Part shown: piece by piece, positions 1 to 4,546 of the stretch
How the letters are laid out: every line of letters begins with the position of its first letter
Numbering within the stretch: position 1 is the first letter of the stretch
Origin: a virus
Lineage: Duplodnaviria; Heunggongvirae; Uroviricota; Caudoviricetes
Virus record (IMG/VR): IMGVR_UViG_2684622582_000010
Span: 1-4,546 of that record
Direction: 5' to 3' (one strand)
DNA: 4,546 nt
Position numbers and translations under genes: made by a program
Notes under the pieces: model-generated
The model's input: the letters and a program-made list of their open reading frames with translations, nothing else
Databases searched by the model: none
Told to the model about the DNA's origin: nothing

Positions 1-1074
1 TCATTTGTCGATTTCAATTTTGTCCCATTCCCGTCCACGGCTGTCCCTATACCGCGCCGCCATTGAATCTGATTTATGCCCGAGAAGACGTTGAGCAAAC
101 TTATCGCCAATCTGGTTCCGGTATAGCCTCGCTGACAGGCTACGCAGTTCATGGAATGTTGGCGGGTTTCCATCAAATGAGAGGCCAGATGCATTTCTCG
201 CCTTTGTAAAATACTTTGATACTGTTTTCGGGGAAAGCGGCTCGTGATGCTTTGATGCGATTATAGTTTCACTGCTGCTGGCCTCCCTGCATTTCTGTAG
301 TGTATCAGCCAATGAGATATTGAGCGCGTCAATCGTTAGCGTTAGCGGAATGGCGAGTTTAGCCCCTGTTTTACTCTGTTTAATGTGAAGATGGTTGTCG
401 TTTATGTCTGACCATTTCATTCTGCACAAATCGCCGACTCTCTGCCCTGTAACGACGGCCAAATCCATCGCCAGCCTTAGCCAGATAGGGAGAGGTTCGG
501 CTGCATGGTAAATCTCGACATACTCATTAGCTGTCAGCCTTGAGCGCCTTACTTCTGACTTTGCTGTACGGGTTGCTGTTACCGGATTCGTTGCCACATG
601 CCCCTCGGCTATTGCTTCACGAAAAACGTCAACAAGGGTTGACCTGATTAATTTTGCGGAAGCTGCTTTACCTTCTGCTACGTAGGTGTTTAGCATTGCT
701 GCCACTTCTTTCGTTGATATGTCAGTGAGCGGTTTGTCCGGCAATTTTCTTCGGATTGCCCTGATTTTGCTGGCGTAGTCGAGTAGAGTTTTCGGCCTGA
801 TCCCCCTTTCGGTGAGGATTGTTTCATATCGGTCAAGCCACACATGAAGAGTGATTGCGTCACCGCCTTTAATTCTGTCTATTAGTGATTTGCGTCCGCT
901 GTCTGAGAGTAACTCAATATTGGCCTGTATTGCTTCAGTAATTGCTATCCTCCTGTCTCTGCCTAATCCGAACTCTTTACCCGTCCTTGGGTCCCTGTAG
1001 CAGTAATATCCATTGTTTCTTATATAAAGGTTAGGGGGTAAATCCCGGCGCTCATGACTTCGCCTTCTTCCCAT
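1..1074 (-). CDS. int: Site-specific tyrosine recombinase, phage lambda Int-family integrase (complete, 357 aa)
   Basis: Complete minus-strand ORF with ATG at 1074-1072 and stop at 3-1. N-terminus MGRRRSHERRDLPPNLYIRNNGYYCYRDPRTGKEFGLG... matches lambda Int as I recall it. C-terminal catalytic region is present (FHELRSL with His/Arg, LLGHKSD...AARY with the tyrosine nucleophile). Start overlaps xis by 23 nt, as in lambda. Confidence 0.95.
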   Translation of the reverse strand: MGRRRSHERRDLPPNLYIRNNGYYCYRDPRTGKEFGLGRDRRIAITEAIQANIELLSDSGRKSLIDRIKGGDAITLHVWLDRYETILTERGIRPKTLLDYASKIRAIRRKLPDKPLTDISTKEVAAMLNTYVAEGKAASAKLIRSTLVDVFREAIAEGHVATNPVTATRTAKSEVRRSRLTANEYVEIYHAAEPLPIWLRLAMDLAVVTGQRVGDLCRMKWSDINDNHLHIKQSKTGAKLAIPLTLTIDALNISLADTLQKCREASSSETIIASKHHEPLSPKTVSKYFTKARNASGLSFDGNPPTFHELRSLSARLYRNQIGDKFAQRLLGHKSDSMAARYRDSRGREWDKIEIDK

Positions 1075-1270
1075 TTCTGATCCTCTTCAAAAGGCTACCT
1101 GTTACTGGTCGATTTAAGTCAACCTTTACCGCTGATTCGTGGAACAGATACTCTCTTCCATCCTTAACCGGAGGAGGGAATATCCTGCATTCGCGCACCC
1201 ATCGACGAACTGTTTCAAGACTTCTTGGACGTCGCTGGCGAGCGTTCCACTCCTGAAGTGTCAAGTACAT
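1052..1270 (-). CDS. xis: Excisionase Xis (72 aa), lambda Xis-like
   Basis: ORF MYLTLQEWNARQRRPRSLETVRRWVRECRIFPPPVKDGREYLFHESAVKVDLNRPVTG...KRIRNGKKAKS is near-identical to lambda Xis as recalled. GGAG lies 8 nt upstream of the ATG. The 3' end overlaps the int start, the canonical lambda arrangement. Confidence 0.93.
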   Translation of the reverse strand: MYLTLQEWNARQRRPRSLETVRRWVRECRIFPPPVKDGREYLFHESAVKVDLNRPVTGSLLKRIRNGKKAKS

Positions 1271-1360: not shown

Positions 1361-1672
1361 TTATTCGATGCGCACTCCTGGTATTTCGCCTTTTGATATT
1401 GCTAAGTCATAAATTTGCGCAGCACTATACCCATCTCGCATCCATGAATCTAAGGCGCTAACAGCCTCGATACGCTTTTTATCTTCTCTCTCATTTTTGA
1501 TATCAACGAGGACATCAACGCAATTAAGGCATATGTGGATTTTGTCCTTACATTCGATCATGGCGGCTTTACCATGATTTCCGCCACACAGTGAGCATAA
1601 ATCTTCAGGGTCTGGCTGGTATTTCTGTAACGTTAAAGGGTTGAATGTTGAACAGGCCATAATCATCTCCAT
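1361..1672 (-). CDS. Small Cys4 zinc-ribbon protein, positional equivalent of lambda Ea8.5 (99-103 aa, start uncertain)
   Basis: ORF with CxxC-(11)-C-(6)-CxxC (CSLCGG...C...CLNC). It sits where lambda carries ea8.5, which is reported to have a homeodomain/zinc-finger fold. Three in-frame ATGs at 1672, 1666 and 1660; only the ATG at 1660 has an SD-like GGAG 6 nt upstream. The ATG at 1672 sits in the U-tract of the upstream terminator hairpin. Confidence 0.6.
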   Translation of the reverse strand: MEMIMACSTFNPLTLQKYQPDPEDLCSLCGGNHGKAAMIECKDKIHICLNCVDVLVDIKNEREDKKRIEAVSALDSWMRDGYSAAQIYDLAISKGEIPGVRIE

Positions 1673-1697
1673 AAAACAAAACTCGCCGTAGCGAGTT
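1671..1697 (-). terminator. Intrinsic-terminator-like hairpin B (minus strand)
   Basis: Perfect 7-bp inverted repeat AACTCGC (1680-1686) / GCGAGTT (1691-1697) with loop CGTA. On the minus-strand RNA it is followed by UUGUUUUAU (reverse complement of 1671-1679). Confidence 0.45.
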
Positions 1698-1700
1698 CAG

Positions 1701-1727
1701 ATAAAAGAAATCCCCGCGAGTGCGAGG
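1701..1727 (-). terminator. Intrinsic-terminator-like hairpin A (minus strand), directly after the ASCH gene stop
   Basis: On the minus-strand RNA: stem CCUCGC / GCGGGG (plus 1712-1717 and 1722-1727) with one G.U wobble that pairs only in the minus-strand transcript, loop ACUC, then AUUUCUUUUAU (reverse complement of 1701-1711). It lies 5 nt after the stop of the 1732-2016 gene and forms a tandem pair with hairpin B. Confidence 0.4.
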
Positions 1728-1731
1728 ATTG

Positions 1732-2016
1732 TTATTCATTGTCGATATTTACCTTTATCGCGAACACCTTTACCGGTTTATCGCCGAAGTGCGGGTGTGT
1801 GATTATCTTAATTTCATAGCCGTCATACGGAACATCAATTCTGCGGCTGGAATCGTCGCGCTTCGGATATCCCTTTGTGATAATCAGGCGGTCATGCTTA
1901 CGGTTAACGAGGCGCTTTTTCCAGTAGTCATTACACAGGCGATACTCTTCCGTTTTCTCGCCTGACTTCATCTGGTCGAAATATTCACCTTTGACGGCAA
2001 GTTGCAGGTTAGCCAC
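1732..2016 (-). CDS. ASCH / PUA-like domain protein (94 aa)
   Basis: GTG start at 2016-2014 with strong SD AGGAGG 6 nt upstream. N-terminal motif SGEKTEEYR fits the ASCH signature GxKxxExR. Size and the beta-rich C-terminus fit ASCH/DUF3850-type PUA-like proteins common in phages. Start overlaps the upstream gene by 8 nt. Confidence 0.75.
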   Translation of the reverse strand: MANLQLAVKGEYFDQMKSGEKTEEYRLCNDYWKKRLVNRKHDRLIITKGYPKRDDSSRRIDVPYDGYEIKIITHPHFGDKPVKVFAIKVNIDNE

Positions 2017-2293
2017 GACCTTCCTCCTTTGGCTTGTGAATTTGTATCGTCATGCCGCTTTGAGTGGTGACTACAATGACAGAACCAGGCTGAAGGCTGT
2101 TAAGATTGAATGCTTCGTAAAACGAATCCAGGGCCAGCGCTTTTTTATTCTTTCGGTTCCACCAACGCCATCCCTTGCTACAGGCTATACTGACAATCCA
2201 CTGTCCACTCCTGTAAGCCATATAAAACCAGATGAGCAAAACCTGAAGGAATGCTATCCAGTCAATAATCGTATATTTCGCGAAGGAGTCCAT
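2009..2293 (-). CDS. Small membrane protein (94 aa), one N-terminal transmembrane helix, unknown function
   Basis: ATG at 2293-2291 is preceded by AGGAGG with 8-nt spacing and overlaps the upstream stop (TGATG). N-terminal hydrophobic segment YTIIDWIAFLQVLLIWFYMAY is followed by a basic stretch (RWWNRKNKK). The longer track ORF 2009-2347 adds 18 residues without an RBS, so the internal start is preferred. Confidence 0.7.
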   Translation of the reverse strand: MDSFAKYTIIDWIAFLQVLLIWFYMAYRSGQWIVSIACSKGWRWWNRKNKKALALDSFYEAFNLNSLQPGSVIVVTTQSGMTIQIHKPKEEGRG

Positions 2294-2832
2294 CACTTCA
2301 CCTCCTGCGGCGGTTCTGGTAGTGGCATCCAATTGATTACATCGCATTCAGGGATGCTGATATCATCACCAAGCCACCCTTGACCTTCAGACCAGCATTG
2401 CGCGTAATACCCGTATTCTGTGTTCACTACGCACCACTGCGCGTCGTTCGGCATTCGCTCACTACAGCTTATCCAACCATCCGGAGTTACCGGATAGTTG
2501 TCATTCACAAGGTCAGCTCGAACATATAGCGTGTCATCATGGTGCTGATTGTGGCTGCACCACGTTAATTCGCTTAACTCGCCATCTTCTGGCCATACTC
2601 CAGCCGTTTGCAGCCAGATATGGACTGGCGCATCTTGGCAAGGTGTATTAACTGGCAACTTGTAAGTTTGGCTTACAGGTTCTGCACTATCAGCTTCGCG
2701 CCGCTTCTGTAGCTCTGCTGCCATCGCTCTCACGACTTCAACTGGTGCCCTTGCAGCAAACTCCATGTTGGTGATCAGCTCATTAAGATATTGCTCGCTG
2801 GGATACTGTTTCTTATCGGTTATAGTGGTCAT
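2293..2832 (-). CDS. Phage protein with C-terminal DUF551-like domain (179 aa)
   Basis: ATG at 2832-2830 with SD AAGGAG 6 nt upstream, one nucleotide after the upstream stop (TGA-G-ATG). C-terminal ...DGWISCSERMPNDAQWCVV...INWMPLPEPP resembles the DUF551 family as I recall it (conserved Trp residues and a terminal WMPLPEPP). The track's N-terminal extension to 2874 lacks an RBS and lies inside the upstream gene. Confidence 0.72.
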   Translation of the reverse strand: MTTITDKKQYPSEQYLNELITNMEFAARAPVEVVRAMAAELQKRREADSAEPVSQTYKLPVNTPCQDAPVHIWLQTAGVWPEDGELSELTWCSHNQHHDDTLYVRADLVNDNYPVTPDGWISCSERMPNDAQWCVVNTEYGYYAQCWSEGQGWLGDDISIPECDVINWMPLPEPPQEVK

Positions 2833-2833
2833 C

Positions 2834-3409
2834 TCACTCTCCTTTGATGCGAATGCCAGCGGCGCGGGAATCATTCCATCGCTTTACTTCTTCACGAATT
2901 ACGTCAATGCATTCTTTCGAATCCATTAGGTAATCTTCATCAAAAAGACGTTCCTGTTCGTTTTCTATCGCAACAATGATTGCTTCAACTAACTTTTGTG
3001 CCTGAGAATCACTTTCTAACTCTGCTATGCGCTTACTCCCATCCGAGATAACACCTTCGTAATATTCACGCTGTTCGTTGAGTTTTGATTTTGTCTCTTC
3101 AAGCTCAGCAACCAGTTTTCGAAGCCCTTCAATCTCACCATTGCGAGCAATGAGGTCGCGGCACATGCTTTCGTTCTCATCCAGTAGTGCCTGCACTACT
3201 TCTGGGTTGAAAGCTGCGATATAACGAGCGTTGTTCTCTGCGTTTTTCTGTCCATCAAAGCCGGTCCATTTGATAACGTCTTCACATCGTTTATCACCGG
3301 GCGTATGCACCGCATACGTACCAGTACCCGGCGAAATAAATGCGACCCATTCGCCTTGTGTTGCCTGTTTTGCTATCTCACGCAGTGCCTGATAGTTAAT
3401 CTCGCTCAC
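2834..3409 (-). CDS. Ea22/Ead-like protein with central coiled coil (191 aa)
   Basis: GTG start at 3409-3407 overlapping the upstream stop (GTGA), with GAGAGG upstream. N-terminus MSEINYQALREIAKQATQGEW resembles the conserved N-terminus of lambdoid Ea22-family proteins as recalled. Residues ~90-150 are Leu/Glu/Lys-rich with heptad character (IEGLRKLVAELEETKSKLNEQ...). It occupies the ea22 position of a lambda-like early-left operon. Confidence 0.7.
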   Translation of the reverse strand: MSEINYQALREIAKQATQGEWVAFISPGTGTYAVHTPGDKRCEDVIKWTGFDGQKNAENNARYIAAFNPEVVQALLDENESMCRDLIARNGEIEGLRKLVAELEETKSKLNEQREYYEGVISDGSKRIAELESDSQAQKLVEAIIVAIENEQERLFDEDYLMDSKECIDVIREEVKRWNDSRAAGIRIKGE

Positions 3410-3627
3410 TTCGAACCTCTCTGTTTACTGATAAGCTCCAGATCCTCTTGGCAACTTGCACAAGTCCGACAACCCTGAACGACCAGGCGTCTTCGTTCAT
3501 CTATGGGATCGCCACACTCACAACAATGAGTGGCGGATATAGTCTGGTAGTTCAGACGACGCATTTTTATTGCTGTGTTGCGCTGTAATTCTTCAATTTC
3601 TGATGCTGAATCAATGATGTCTGCCAT
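3406..3627 (-). CDS. TraR/DksA-family C4-type zinc-finger protein (73 aa)
   Basis: CxxC-(17)-CxxC in ...THCCECGDPIDERRRLVVQGCRTCASCQE..., matching the TraR/DksA C4 zinc-finger pattern (compare F-plasmid TraR C.ACGNPIPE.RR...C..CQ). Size is typical of phage TraR-like proteins. Confidence 0.82.
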   Translation of the reverse strand: MADIIDSASEIEELQRNTAIKMRRLNYQTISATHCCECGDPIDERRRLVVQGCRTCASCQEDLELISKQRGSK

Positions 3628-3682
3628 CTTTCATTAATCCCTGAATTGTTGGTTAATACGCTTGAGGGTGAATGCGAATAAT

Positions 3683-3703
3683 AAAAAAGGAGCCTGTAGC
3701 TCC
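3683..3703 (-). terminator. Intrinsic-terminator-like hairpin (minus strand) between the hypothetical ORF and the TraR-like gene
   Basis: Stem GGAGC (3689-3693) / GCTCC (3699-3703) with a 5-nt loop. On the minus-strand RNA it is followed by UUUUUU (reverse complement of 3683-3688) and then AUUAUU. It lies 23 nt after the stop at 3726. The stem is short, so this is a weaker call. Confidence 0.35.
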
Positions 3704-3725
3704 ATGATGATTTTGTTTTTCATGC

Positions 3726-4007
3726 TCACCGTTCCTTAAAGACGCCGTTTAACATGCCGATCGCCTGGCTTAAATGAGTCGGTGTGAATCCCATCAGCGT
3801 TACCGTTTCGCGGTGCTTCTTCAGTACGCTACGGCAAATGTCATCGACGTTTTTATCCGGAAACTGCTGTCTGGCTTTTTTGATTTCAGAATTAGCCTGA
3901 CGGGCAATGCTGCGAAGGGCGTTTTCCTGCTGAGGTGTCACTGAACAAGCCCCATGTCGGCAAGCATAAGCACACAGAATATGAAGCCCGCAGCCAGAAA
4001 AATGCAT
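3726..4007 (-). CDS. Hypothetical protein, start uncertain (93 aa from ATG 4007, or 71 aa from GTG 3941)
   Basis: Open frame ending at TGA 3728-3726. The ATG at 4007 directly follows an in-frame TGA and has no SD. The in-frame GTG at 3941-3939 has GGGG 8 nt upstream and overlaps the stop of the 27-aa ORF (GTGA). The Cys/His-rich N-terminal 22 residues look like a frame artefact. No family recognised. Confidence 0.5.
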   Translation of the reverse strand: MHFSGCGLHILCAYACRHGACSVTPQQENALRSIARQANSEIKKARQQFPDKNVDDICRSVLKKHRETVTLMGFTPTHLSQAIGMLNGVFKER

Positions 4008-4021
4008 TCAGTGGTTGTCAT
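3938..4021 (-). CDS. Candidate small hydrophobic peptide (27 aa), not in the ORF track
   Basis: ATG at 4021-4019 overlaps the orf63-like stop (ATGA); stop TGA at 3940-3938 overlaps the downstream GTG (GTGA). My hand translation is MTTTECIFLAAGFIFCVLMLADMGLVQ, a single transmembrane-helix-like peptide. No SD of its own; it would depend on translational coupling. Confidence 0.3.
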   Translation of the reverse strand: MTTTECIFLAAGFIFCVLMLADMGLVQ

Positions 4022-4209
4022 ACCTGGTCTCTCTCATCTGCTTCTGCTTTCGCCACCATCATTTCCAGTTTTTGTGAAAGGGATGTGGCTAACGTATGAA
4101 ATTCTTCGTCTGTTTCTACTGGTATTGGCACAAACCTGACTCCAATTTGAGCAAGGCTATGTGCCATCTCAATGCTCGTTCTTAACTCAACAGGAGATGC
4201 TTTGTGCAT
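4018..4209 (-). CDS. Small protein equivalent to lambda orf63 (63 aa), unknown function
   Basis: ATG at 4209-4207 with GAGGGG upstream. Length (63 aa), position (second gene downstream of exo) and the 28-nt overlap with the preceding 60-aa gene match lambda orf63 as I recall it. Sequence identity is not verified. Confidence 0.65.
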   Translation of the reverse strand: MHKASPVELRTSIEMAHSLAQIGVRFVPIPVETDEEFHTLATSLSQKLEMMVAKAEADERDQV

Positions 4210-4364
4210 ACAGCCCCTCGTTTATTATTTATCTCCTCAGCCAGCCGCTGTGCTTTCAGTGGATTTTGGATAACAGAAAGGCCGGGAAATACCCAGCCTC
4301 GCTTTGTAACGGAGTAGACGAAAGTGATCGCACCTACCCGGATATTATCGTGAGGATGCTTCAT
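4182..4364 (-). CDS. Small protein equivalent to lambda orf60a (60 aa), unknown function
   Basis: ATG at 4364-4362 overlaps the exo stop (ATGA) and has GGGGAG 8 nt upstream. The track's ATG at 4370 gives 62 aa but has only a 2-nt spacer. Length and position immediately downstream of exo match lambda orf60a as recalled. Confidence 0.65.
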
Positions 4365-4546
4365 CGCCATTGCTCCCCAAATACAAAACCAATTTCAGCC
4401 AGTGCCTCGTCCATTTTTTCGATGAACTCCGGCACCATCTCGTCAAAACCCGCCATGTACTTTTCATCCCGCTCAACCACGACATAATGCAGGCCTTCAC
4501 GCTTCATACGCGGGTCATAGTTGGCAAAGTACCAGGCATCTTTTCG
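4361..4546 (-). CDS. exo: Lambda-type exonuclease (Red-alpha, Exo), C-terminal 61 codons; gene continues beyond the window edge
   Basis: Not in the track because it has no start in the window. My translation of the minus strand from 4546 to 4364 is [61 protein letters not shown], then TGA at 4363-4361. This matches the C-terminus of lambda Exo (...[21 protein letters not shown]) as I recall it. Confidence 0.88.

Follow-up and report, generated by a model that had tools for sequence, protein, structure and literature searches.

A five-gene chain in a lambda-type prophage is a mosaic version of the exo-xis region

Gene content and layout

We analysed a 4546-nt stretch of DNA (the whole of which is referred to here as the window) in which all genes lie on the minus strand. 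A block of five ORFs lies within the interval between the 3′ end of exo (4363-4546) and xis (1052-1270). The block encodes, in order, a TraR/DksA-family C4 zinc-finger protein (3406..3627), an Ea22-like protein (2834..3409), a DUF551 protein (2293..2832), a DUF4752 protein (2009..2293), and an ASCH-like (PUA-superfamily) protein (1732..2016). These ORFs have the same coordinates as the gene calls of GCA_001268365.1 (contig CXYT01000009.1), and all five match catalogued phage families (Pfam, phrog; the ASCH-like ORF is below the Pfam ASCH cut-off). Plus-strand ORFs (e.g. 1991-2383) were considered as genes and rejected; the minus-strand ORFs all have a strong family match and fill the space.

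A script check reproduced the coordinates, the strand, and the chain of start/stop overlaps that a first-pass annotation of this DNA had described. The TraR-like gene and the Ea22 gene overlap by 4 nt (GTGA, 3406-3409; gap of -4), a 1-nt gap separates the Ea22 and DUF551 genes (TGA-G-ATG, 2830-2836; +1), and overlaps of 1 nt and 8 nt join DUF551 to DUF4752 (TGATG, 2291-2295; -1) and DUF4752 to the ASCH-like gene (2009-2016; -8). At every downstream start, a strong Shine-Dalgarno sequence (AAGGAG, AGGAGG, AAGGAGG) lies within the 3′ end of the preceding gene. Outside the block, the same window contains overlaps between exo and orf60a (8 nt), orf60a and orf63 (28 nt), and xis and int (23 nt). 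Close gene packing is not peculiar to the five-gene block and is usual in the exo-xis operon.

Upstream of the block, the window contains the 3′ part of exo (lambda exonuclease, 4363..4546, cut by the window and contig end), an orf60a homologue (DUF1317, 4182..4370, Pfam E=6e-40) with 97% amino acid identity to lambda, and an orf63 homologue (DUF1382, 4018..4209, Pfam E=8e-31) with 94% identity. These are followed by a 93-aa form of an orf61-like gene (3726..4007), which matches phrog_303 over its full length (E=8e-42). Its match to lambda falls in two different frames, and VT2-Sakai orf10 is 95% identical. Downstream of the block lies a gene for a zinc-ribbon protein (1361..1672; phrog_3680, E=1e-67, 99/103 aa) that occupies the lambda orf55 position and is 98% identical to VT2-Sakai orf3. 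This protein resembles the N-terminal zinc-binding domain of ClpX, with weak matches to the ClpX zinc finger. The window ends with xis (1052..1270; Pfam Exc, E=4e-41; 98.6% amino acid identity to lambda Xis) and the tyrosine integrase gene int (1..1074), whose product is 75% identical to lambda Int and 99% identical to that of an E. coli prophage at torS. The prophage is of lambda type and is integrated next to torS.

The block has exo on one side and xis on the other and sits on the strand read from pL, in line with the definition of the exo-xis region (PMC8614690; PMC4195576). In such regions, variable genes come after a conserved set (PMC8614690). The conserved block orf60a-orf63-orf61-orf73-ea22 is complete and in order in the window, with 96% nucleotide identity to lambda up to the ea22 start (window 4546..3346 against lambda 31533..30332, exo through orf73 into ea22). 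The earlier placement of these genes in a lambda-like early-left operon is right, and the idea of a mosaic hotspot holds as well. About 0.8 kb had been estimated as extra relative to lambda; the window, at 4546 nt, exceeds the collinear lambda interval (3725 nt) by 821 nt.

Proteins encoded by the block

The TraR-like gene product matches zf-dskA_traR (Pfam accession PF01258, E=8e-9, 35.7 bits against a cut-off of 24.9) and phrog_54 (E=1.5e-24), in agreement with the family first assigned to it. It contains the C4 zinc finger (CxxC-17-CxxC), and residues 3-8 (DIIDSA) fit the N-terminal DxxDxA motif, which contacts the RNA polymerase active-site region (PMC9239242). The product is 97% identical (71/73 residues) to the translation of lambda 30395-30613 and its gene has the same GTGA overlap with ea22. 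Because the window is so similar to lambda from exo into ea22, sequence comparison identifies the TraR-like gene as lambda orf73, not extra cargo. The first-pass annotation had placed only ea8.5 and ea22 between xis and orf61/orf63 in lambda, which overlooks orf73, and had counted four genes as extra cargo. That count stands for the DUF551, membrane, and ASCH genes, which differ from lambda, but not for the TraR-like gene.

Lambda Orf73, expressed from pL in the early lytic phase, is an RNA-polymerase-binding inhibitor of rRNA promoters (PMC9239242). Work cited in PMC9239242 connects the lambda cluster orf73-ea22-ea8.5-orf55 with the inhibition of replication initiation in the host. Because of the 97% identity to lambda Orf73, the window protein would by analogy bind the secondary channel of RNA polymerase, dampen the promoters for rRNA and ribosomal proteins, and increase the phage yield. 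The correction gained is that the TraR-like gene corresponds to a characterised RNA-polymerase regulator of lambda.

The Ea22-like gene has a GTG start and encodes a 191-aa protein. This protein matches Ead_Ea22 (Pfam accession PF13935, E=5e-32, 111.7 bits) over residues 2-132, with the N-terminal and coiled-coil signature present, and its Ea22-like label is sound. The N-terminal 134 residues are 42% identical to lambda Ea22. Searches against all solved structures, including the C-terminal domain of lambda Ea22, gave no sequence match, and the C-terminal 60 residues of the window Ea22 therefore represent a different module. Ea22 has been described as pro-lysogenic (PMC7093339) and as mosaic, with DUF551 a portable domain (PMC7093339; PMC10834534). 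By analogy, the window Ea22 would be a modular protein that favours lysogeny. The earlier statement that no function is established for this combination overlooks published work on Orf73 (PMC9239242) and Ea22 (PMC7093339).

Ea22 proteins carry a C-terminal K/RGE tripeptide (PMC7093339). The window Ea22 ends in IRIKGE, encoded by AAAGGAGAG and followed by TGA-G-ATG. The coding sequence of the K/RGE tail, otherwise unexplained, doubles as the Shine-Dalgarno site for the gene behind it. This conserved end gains a simple explanation as the ribosome-binding site for the following gene.

The DUF551 protein (179 aa) consists of an N-terminal module (residues 1-61), a linker (AEPVSQTYKL), and a DUF551 domain (residues 119-176; Pfam accession PF04448, E=1e-11, 45.5 bits against a gathering threshold of 22), which confirms its first-pass label. 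It also matches phrog_6847 and phrog_60. The exact protein was found on one contig only, and an allele with at least 80% coverage is present in 1 of 5426 E. coli genomes. Domain context suggests that DUF551 is a portable C-terminal domain that is also fused to Ea22 and to other effectors. The next gene, initially described as encoding a membrane protein, encodes a 94-aa DUF4752 protein (Pfam accession PF15944, E=3e-36; residues 8-91, 123.9 bits against a gathering threshold of 27; phrog_667). Hydropathy alone gives a single N-terminal hydrophobic stretch (residues 8-26, Kyte-Doolittle 19-residue maximum 1.78), consistent with the membrane label as a predicted transmembrane segment, and on this basis the protein is most likely small and membrane-anchored.

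The ASCH-like protein (94 aa, GTG start) is a homologue of 933W L0064. It scores below the cut-off for ASCH (Pfam accession PF04266; 14.8 vs 21.2 bits, E=0.047). None of 65 diverse relatives matches Pfam at E≤0.001, so transitive membership fails; at E≤1, ASCH appears as a weak match in 31 of the 65 and DUF3850 in 6. Residues G19, K21, E24, and R26 are invariant or nearly so across the family alignments (A1-A3) and form the GxKxxExR motif, which we take to be the ASCH signature. Sequence and profile searches of PDB chains returned nothing meaningful for the family, the top matches being a xylosidase and ribosomal proteins. An AF2 model from the shallow alignment A1 (at least 73% identity) had a pLDDT of 51 and was discarded; the deeper alignment A3 was needed. 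Structure modelling gives the window protein an ASCH/PUA-like β-barrel fold and confirms, at the level of a model, that phrog_625 (933W L0064), a widespread phage family, has the ASCH fold. Compared with the ASCH domain proteins 3IUW (E. faecalis), 2Z0T (P. horikoshii PH0355), 9KYF (the E. coli ac4C amidohydrolase YqfB), and 5GUS (Z. mobilis ZmASCH), the window protein has only 94 aa and sequence similarity below Pfam's cut-off. Judging by the modelled fold, it is most likely a small PUA-fold protein that binds RNA or nucleotides or modifies nucleotides. NCBIfam holds no model for Ea22, DUF551, DUF4752, or ASCH. The three cassette proteins (DUF551, DUF4752, and ASCH-like) most likely act separately on host physiology.

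Terminator-like hairpins and transcription

We identified 12 terminator-like sites in the whole window, against 4.8 ± 2.1 in shuffled sequences. Minus-strand hairpins, each followed by a T-tract, lie at 3703-3689, 1730-1709, and 1698-1679, and another lies at 1320-1301; stem energies range from -8.6 to -13.9 kcal/mol. The terminator-like hairpins noted earlier as bracketing the block are present and match sites previously predicted in lambda (PMC4195576, Table 4). Upstream, the hairpin and T-tract at 3679..3703 (-8.6 kcal/mol) correspond to t2, with one base off in the upstream flank, and overlap p1, a promoter predicted in the literature ahead of orf73. Downstream, tandem hairpins (1679..1730) correspond to t3 (1730-1709, -13.1 kcal/mol) and t4 (1698-1679, -11.9 kcal/mol). 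The scan also recovered a hairpin inside orf60a (4300-4278) that matches t1 in the same table, and t5 (1320-1301), which precedes xis. Rfam, searched at a permissive E-value, returned only a chance Leu_leader match antisense to the t3/t4 hairpins (20.8 vs 50 bits).

We considered these terminators as operon boundaries and rejected this as a firm conclusion, since N-antiterminated pL transcription passes such sites in lambda, where N-modified polymerase reads through intrinsic terminators. By analogy with lambda, the block would be transcribed from N-antiterminated pL, possibly aided by the predicted p1, and transcription would end or be attenuated at t3/t4. We infer co-transcription, terminator function, and translational coupling from the sequence and from lambda and phi24B. 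The last codons of every gene contain the ribosome-binding site for its successor, and this accounts for the start/stop overlaps. Every downstream gene has its own strong Shine-Dalgarno sequence, and independent initiation is therefore as likely as true coupling.

Mosaic origin and relation to known prophages

The junction at the ea22 end, GCTGGCATTCGCATCAAAGGAGAGTGAGAT (2831..2861), comprises the last 31 nt of the window ea22 and shows 100% identity with the lambda ea22 terminus (29874-29844), with unrelated flanks; it forms the left boundary of the swapped segment. The t3/t4 region (1735-1662) is 97% identical to lambda 29361-29288. Judged by sequence, the DUF551, DUF4752, and ASCH-like genes are the sole genes of the block that are unlike lambda, and they stand in for ea8.5. 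The cassette of these three genes would have been exchanged by recombination at short conserved junctions, namely the 31-nt end of ea22 and the 74 nt that contain the t3/t4 terminators.

The five families are seldom found together in 241 related viral loci. These loci derive from sets of the 80 closest IMG/VR relatives per seed, which are phylogenetically redundant, and the frequencies are descriptive. Among the 64 TraR-seeded loci obtained from the 80 closest relatives, Ea22 occurs in 58, DUF551 in 52, DUF4752 in 4, and ASCH in 2. TraR lies at most 2.6 kb upstream in 1 of 68 ASCH-seeded and 1 of 66 DUF4752-seeded loci, and all five families are present in 1/64 TraR-seeded and 1/66 DUF4752-seeded loci. 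In an unlabelled-gene view, the 68 ASCH-seeded loci have 57 distinct gene orders. Neither the window nor the block is matched over 80% or more of its length by any phage record or complete E. coli genome. The gap between TraR and Ea22 genes is -4 in all 64 scorable pairs, that between DUF4752 and ASCH is -8 in 66 of 71, and that between DUF551 and DUF4752 is -4 or -1 in 60 of 69. Junction geometry is inherited along with the modules.

This synteny bears on whether the five genes form a single dedicated system (for exclusion or anti-defence, for example) with mutually needed parts, and on the earlier question of whether they travel as a unit. Tight overlap chaining and flanking hairpins are consistent with such a system, as is the recurrence of this gene order, with every junction unchanged, in E. 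coli 95NR1 and in one IMG/VR locus (L112). However, overlaps are the norm across the whole operon, and the families occur independently in related loci, as the rarity of TraR beside ASCH or DUF4752 attests. Lambda has orf73-ea22 without DUF551, DUF4752, or ASCH, Salmonella phage ST104 has Ea22-DUF4752-ASCH with no TraR gene annotated, and in Kluyvera, Scandinavium, Dryocola, Rhizobium, and others, ASCH relatives occur without any of the partners. PADLOC, whose library is without anti-defence genes, returned no defence-system matches for seven proteins at E≤0.01. A travelling unit is not what we found, which is the outcome that the first-pass annotation itself had named as evidence against a functional unit, and a single dedicated five-gene system is already largely refuted by synteny and highly improbable. 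The hairpins could also bound a separate transcription unit, in which t2 would stop most pL transcription and p1 would drive orf73 through the ASCH-like gene, for example under oxidative stress. Both the t2 hairpin and the p1 elements (-35 TCATCA, -10 TTTTATTAT) are retained in the window; in lambda, mRNA levels are lower for genes downstream of t2 than for those upstream, and in phi24B orf73 and ea22 mRNA is high, above all after H2O2 (PMC4195576). Such a unit is nonetheless unlikely: p1 is a BPROM prediction, a consensus scan of the minus strand at orf73/t2 found no sigma-70-like promoter, N-modified polymerase is expected to pass intrinsic terminators, and lambda Orf73 is reported from pL in the early lytic phase (PMC9239242).

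A narrower functional link would exclude TraR and join Ea22, DUF551, ASCH, and optionally DUF4752 in a system centred on Ea22. The Ea22 N-domain and coiled coil would serve as a common scaffold, with DUF551 and ASCH as interchangeable ‘cargo’ modules delivered as fusions (Ea22~DUF551, Ea22~ASCH, DUF551~ASCH) or as tightly coupled separate ORFs. DUF551 and the ASCH-like PUA fold would then act as effectors, or as readers that recognise host RNA or modified nucleotides, for instance. DUF551 occurs in 66/68 ASCH-seeded, 65/66 DUF4752-seeded, and 52/64 TraR-seeded loci, and the Ea22 N-domain in 77-91%. Single ORFs join the Ea22 N-domain to DUF551 in 28 loci, including a 354-aa fusion (L005) whose N-terminus is nearly identical to the window Ea22; VT2-Sakai orf4 is a 299-aa DUF551~ASCH fusion, and P0122 encodes an Ea22-N~ASCH fusion. 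The literature already assigns DUF551 to one Stx Ea22 variant as its C-terminal domain, and the 933W ea22 is split, with L0065 encoding the last domain. The natural fusions and the presence of DUF551 in ~97% of ASCH- and DUF4752-seeded loci speak against the cassette genes being wholly independent. However, co-occurrence may be no more than a matter of genes sitting at one genomic position in prophages that are closely related and redundant, and fusions can come from trivial stop-codon loss in overlapping genes and need not be functional. Moreover, lambda Ea22 works without DUF551 or ASCH, and ASCH relatives outside Enterobacteriaceae are without Ea22 and mostly without a nearby DUF551. We regard an Ea22-centred system as doubtful. 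If true, it would offer a specific entry point for studying how Ea22 tips the balance between lysis and lysogeny, and testable Ea22 partners in Shiga-toxin phages, where lysis timing controls toxin release.

Very probably, the block makes up the distal half of the exo-xis region, which is the dispensable accessory portion of the pL early-left operon; here conserved orf73 and ea22 are followed by swapped-in DUF551-DUF4752-ASCH. The five-gene chain is a routine mosaic version of this studied region, not a new five-gene unit. The finding by itself has little weight, being another mosaic variant of gene families that are all catalogued; part of its modest value is that the swap junctions are now located relative to lambda.

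The window shares position, strand, and gene order with the lambda exo-xis region (orf60a-orf63-orf61-orf73-ea22-ea8.5-orf55), and the predicted t1-t5 match. It differs from lambda in that DUF551-DUF4752-ASCH takes the place of ea8.5 with its upstream spacer, and the ClpX-zinc-finger-like gene that of orf55. The Ea22 allele is divergent, orf61 has the 93-aa form, Int is 75% identical, and the attachment site lies next to torS. RefSeq already annotates the same chain in an E. coli 95NR1 prophage (NZ_CP021339.1, 5169099-5171396), under the names TraR/DksA, ead/Ea22-like, DUF551, DUF4752, and ASCH, in the same order and with the same gaps (-4, +1, -1, -8). The Ea22 and DUF551 alleles of 95NR1 are longer (256 and 248 aa, respectively), the downstream genes differ, and the two blocks are ~94% identical at the nucleotide level across only 50% of the window block.

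In VT2-Sakai/933W, proteins of the orf60a-orf63-orf61-TraR-Ea22 series are 94-97% identical to those of the window, Ea22 excepted. The ASCH-like domain (933W L0064) is 86% identical, and the zinc-ribbon gene before xis is shared as well (orf3, 98%). VT2-Sakai has four additional ORFs between Ea22 and the DUF551 gene, a DUF4752 match was not found there, and DUF551 and ASCH are combined in one ORF (orf4), whereas they are separate genes in the window. Salmonella phage ST104 (P22-like) has the order Ea22-like orf8, DUF4752 orf7, ASCH orf6, xis, and int, with the same -1 and -8 overlaps. It has no annotated TraR/orf73 or lambda-type exo, orf60a, orf63, or orf61, and carries a P22-type recombination module (erf, abc) instead. 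A DUF551 gene is not separately annotated in ST104, and its 263-aa Ea22-like orf8 may contain a DUF551 domain.

Layout of the gene chain and its junctions

All recognisable genes in the window lie on the minus strand. In minus-strand order, these are the 3' end of exo, orf60a (DUF1317), orf63 (DUF1382), an orf61-like gene (93 aa, 3726-4007), a TraR-like gene (3406-3627), an Ea22-like gene (2834-3409), a DUF551 gene (2293-2832), a DUF4752 gene (2009-2293), an ASCH-like gene (94 aa, 1732-2016), a zinc-ribbon gene (99/103 aa, 1361-1672), xis and int. A hairpin separates the orf61-like gene from the TraR-like gene, two hairpins follow the ASCH-like gene, and another lies between the zinc-ribbon gene and xis. 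The window lies at the end of contig CXYT01000009.1 (assembly GCA_001268365.1), and the prophage adjoins torS. The interval carries an established name, the "exo-xis region".

A first-pass annotation had proposed that the five genes from TraR-like to ASCH-like (1732-3627) form a chained accessory block bracketed by terminator-like hairpins. The chain is real: the assembly gene calls match its coordinates exactly, and a scripted check recovered each junction. TraR/Ea22 is a GTGA overlap of 4 nt (3406-3409), Ea22/DUF551 a TGA-G-ATG with a 1-nt gap (2830-2836), DUF551/DUF4752 a TGATG with a 1-nt overlap (2291-2295), and DUF4752/ASCH an 8-nt overlap (2009-2016). The hairpins were also found, by a consensus scan that placed minus-strand terminator-like sites at 3703-3689, 1730-1709, 1698-1679 and 1320-1301 (stem energies -8.6 to -13.9 kcal/mol) and counted 12 sites in the whole window versus 4.8 +/- 2.1 in shuffles. 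In lambda, Bloch et al. predicted five terminators here (t1-t5) and a promoter, p1, that overlaps t2 (PMC4195576, Table 4), and the window hairpins differ from those sequences by at most single bases. At a permissive threshold Rfam gave a single match, a sub-threshold Leu_leader (1677-1735, plus strand; 20.8 vs 50 bits, E=0.61). It lies antisense to the tandem hairpins t3/t4 and is almost certainly a chance product of the two stem-loops.

Start/stop overlaps are no peculiarity of the five block genes, as exo/orf60a (-8), orf60a/orf63 (-28) and xis/int (-23) also overlap. Among related loci, spacing was -4 in 64 of 64 scorable TraR-Ea22 pairs and -8 in 66 of 71 DUF4752-ASCH pairs. DUF551-DUF4752 spacing was -4 in 50 pairs and -1 in 10, while directly adjacent DUF551-ASCH genes were spaced at -8 (15 pairs). 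Each adjacent pair thus keeps its own geometry, and junctions are inherited with the modules. Ahead of every downstream start in the block, the final codons of the preceding gene contain a strong Shine-Dalgarno sequence. The overlaps therefore belong to the cassettes and to conserved gene ends bearing the next gene's ribosome-binding site, and do not point to any special five-gene arrangement. With a strong Shine-Dalgarno sequence of its own, each gene may be translated either by true coupling or by independent initiation.

The Ea22 end illustrates this arrangement. A K/RGE end is reported for all Ea22 variants, as a motif of "unknown significance" (PMC7093339). We compared 125 distinct 3' contexts of Ea22-family ORFs (IMG/VR loci L003-L241; window 2830-2845) and identified 55 that end in KGE. 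The exact AAAGGAGAGTGA is present in 51 of these 55, and an ATG follows one base past the stop in 54. The KGE codons, AAAGGAGAG, constitute a Shine-Dalgarno site, and the other common Ea22 endings (GGAGGTGAG) are SD-like too. The K/RGE tail is thus most simply read as the Shine-Dalgarno sequence for the downstream gene, and is probably also a recombination junction for that gene. Lambda ea22 keeps the motif with no ATG following, consistent with loss of a downstream cassette from lambda.

A cassette exchange on a lambda backbone

A blastn comparison of the window with lambda 27700-32100 gave four informative matches. Window 4546..3346 corresponds to lambda 31533..30332 (96%), spanning exo to about 60 nt into ea22. 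A 31-nt match (100%; window 2861-2831, lambda 29874-29844) lies at the extreme end of ea22, a 74-nt match (97%; window 1735-1662, lambda 29361-29288) covers both downstream hairpins, and int and xis match at 77%. The Ea22 allele of the window is divergent from that of lambda (42% amino acid identity, N-terminal part). The lambda spacer and ea8.5 (~0.48 kb) are replaced in the window by DUF551-DUF4752-ASCH (~1.1 kb), and lambda orf55 is replaced by the zinc-ribbon gene. The window is a lambda exo-xis backbone with a cassette swapped in at conserved junctions.

The first-pass annotation had described lambda as carrying only ea8.5 and ea22 in this interval and had counted the TraR-like gene as extra cargo. 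This description was wrong, since lambda 30392-30613 encodes a 73-aa protein that differs from the window TraR-like protein at two positions and has the same GTGA overlap with ea22. The gene, named orf73 in the literature, is unannotated in NC_001416 and annotated in other lambda records. TraR and Ea22 belong to the conserved lambda backbone. The estimate that about 0.8 kb is added relative to lambda holds (net difference +821 nt).

The backbone genes have been studied in lambda. Orf73, a TraR homologue, is expressed early from pL, binds RNA polymerase and inhibits rRNA and r-protein promoters; under its action the host grows more slowly and phage yield is roughly four times higher (PMC9239242). 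Older work, as cited in that paper, jointly ties orf73, ea22, ea8.5 and orf55 to inhibition of host replication initiation. Ea22 is pro-lysogenic and highly diverse (PMC7093339). Lambda genes downstream of t2 have lower mRNA, and orf73/ea22 mRNA is high in phi24B after H2O2 (PMC4195576).

The genes flanking the block have features of their own. The zinc-ribbon gene between the block and xis (1361-1672, minus strand) belongs to phrog_3680 and is 98% identical to VT2-Sakai orf3. Its product has four cysteines that align, with their spacing, to the ClpX N-terminal zinc-binding domain (ZBD), with weak but consistent matches (Pfam zf-C4_ClpX E=0.026; NCBIfam ClpX E=0.004; PDB 2DS7/1OVX/2DS5, weak, E=0.05-0.2). 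A phage-encoded mimic of the ClpX ZBD might disturb the recognition of substrates or adaptors by ClpXP. The 93-aa orf61-like form (3726-4007, minus strand) is common to VT2-Sakai orf10 and phrog_303. Residues 1-46 and 43-93 match two different lambda frames (lambda 30715-30994), so the 61-aa orf61 annotated in lambda looks frameshifted relative to the common form. This protein has a weak Pfam ZapA match (E=0.013), and the VT2-Sakai copy is labelled "cell division protein ZapA" in RefSeq.

Protein families and fluid ORF boundaries

The ASCH-like protein scores 14.8 bits against Pfam ASCH, under the 21.2 cut-off, and has no NCBIfam match and nothing relevant in PDB by sequence or profile search. 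An exhaustive HMMER search recovered 1138 representatives of the family. None of 65 diverse members has a Pfam match at E<=0.001; at E<=1, 31 have a weak ASCH match and 6 a DUF3850 match. A shallow alignment gave an unusable AF2 model (pLDDT 51); an alignment deepened by another round of homologue searching gave pLDDT 86.7 and pTM 0.72. The best Foldseek matches of this model are PH0355, 3IUW (an E. faecalis "activating signal cointegrator"), PF0470, ZmASCH and YqfB, with probability up to 0.98. A G19-x-K21-x-x-E24-x-R26 pattern is conserved across the family and fits GxKxxExR, which we take to be the ASCH motif. Modelling thus supports an ASCH fold for the 94-aa protein, which by its Pfam score is not a formal member of the family.

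The ASCH-like family is present in 332 phage records in all, including HK022, ST104, VT2-Sakai, many Stx2 phages, Jersey-like Salmonella phages and Ralstonia phages. The ST104 protein is a homologue of 933W L0064. In one 267-aa relative (P0121), a cysteine-rich module precedes the ASCH-like domain. A 364-aa protein from the representative search (P0179) has a distant ASCH-like relative at its C-terminus, implying that the domain is reused outside the lambdoid context; its N-terminal 280 residues have no Pfam match at E<=0.001.

DUF551, a catalogued domain, also occurs in YfdS and a phage dATP/dGTP pyrophosphohydrolase (PMC10834534), and a sister prophage at torS has a pyrophosphohydrolase-domain gene at the equivalent position. 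The DUF4752 protein has one hydrophobic segment (residues 8-26, Kyte-Doolittle mean 1.78), which is compatible with its "membrane protein" label and not proof of it. PADLOC defence models matched none of the proteins.

ORF boundaries among these families are fluid. Ea22 has a mosaic structure, and in one Stx variant its C-terminal domain is DUF551, described as portable (PMC10834534). We identified Ea22~DUF551 fusions in 28 loci; in one (L005), a 354-aa ORF starts with the N-terminal ~130 residues of the window Ea22, almost unchanged, and ends with a DUF551 domain. The N-terminal module of the window DUF551 protein instead forms the C-terminus of an Ea22 protein in 90 ORFs. VT2-Sakai orf4 (NC_000902.1, L260 2133-3032) is a 299-aa, single-frame DUF551~ASCH fusion, and a 201-aa protein (P0122) joins the Ea22 N-domain directly to an ASCH-like domain. 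These fusions extend the published picture of mosaic Ea22 variants. They could also suggest that Ea22 is a scaffold with interchangeable cargo domains. We consider this unlikely, because a shared address, sample redundancy and trivial stop-codon loss offer a simpler account.

Exchange also appears to reach inside genes. A single one of 5426 complete E. coli genomes reaches 80% coverage of the window DUF551 allele, yet 2569 genomes carry pieces of the allele (at 95% identity or more in most records). Together these counts point to an intragenic mosaic (2293-2832). The exact protein is found in one public contig only. Recurrent linker motifs, for example AEPVSQTYKL and MPLPEPPQE, appear to mark module boundaries.

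Co-occurrence of the five families

The first-pass annotation had suggested that the five genes might form a functional unit. For each of three seeds, the ASCH-like, DUF4752 and TraR proteins, we gathered up to 80 IMG/VR loci encoding its closest relatives. The ORFs of these loci were labelled by HMMs of the window proteins and their sub-domains, built iteratively, and only loci with sufficient flanking sequence were counted. The 68 ASCH-seeded loci include TraR in 1, the Ea22 N-domain in 59, DUF551 in 66 and DUF4752 in 16. The corresponding counts are TraR 1, Ea22 N-domain 51, DUF551 65 and ASCH 42 for 66 DUF4752-seeded loci, and Ea22 N-domain 58, DUF551 52, DUF4752 4 and ASCH 2 for 64 TraR-seeded loci. 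L112 is the one counted locus with all five families, and the ASCH-seeded loci display 57 different gene orders when unlabelled ORFs are included.

Of 5426 E. coli genomes, 266 have DUF4752 and ASCH as a contiguous pair. No phage record or complete E. coli genome reaches 80% coverage of the window or of the block. In one-genome-per-species data, DUF551 lies just upstream of ASCH relatives in five enterobacterial or Brenneria loci; ASCH relatives in Kluyvera, Scandinavium, Dryocola, Rhizobium, Polaromonas and an alphaproteobacterium have no block partners upstream. Independent occurrence in related prophages was the first-pass annotation's own criterion against a functional unit, and by it the idea is refuted.

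The block is a mosaic member of a well-known region: the initial observation is confirmed and its interpretation partly supported. We propose that early transcription of the region would start at N-antiterminated pL and be attenuated at t2 and t3/t4 under limiting N, and that its tightly packed ORFs would be translated from Shine-Dalgarno sequences embedded in upstream gene ends. Orf73 would reprogramme host RNA polymerase and Ea22 would tilt the decision to lysogeny, while DUF551, DUF4752 and the ASCH-like protein may be individually exchangeable, host-directed accessory factors.

The five-gene architecture is not unique. E. coli 95NR1 contains TraR/Ea22/DUF551/DUF4752/ASCH with gaps of -4, +1, -1 and -8, as in the window, and its RefSeq annotation uses exactly these five family names. 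Strain MB10 lacks only DUF4752 relative to the window chain, whereas the P22-like phage ST104 has the order Ea22-DUF4752-ASCH-xis-int, with no annotated TraR gene.
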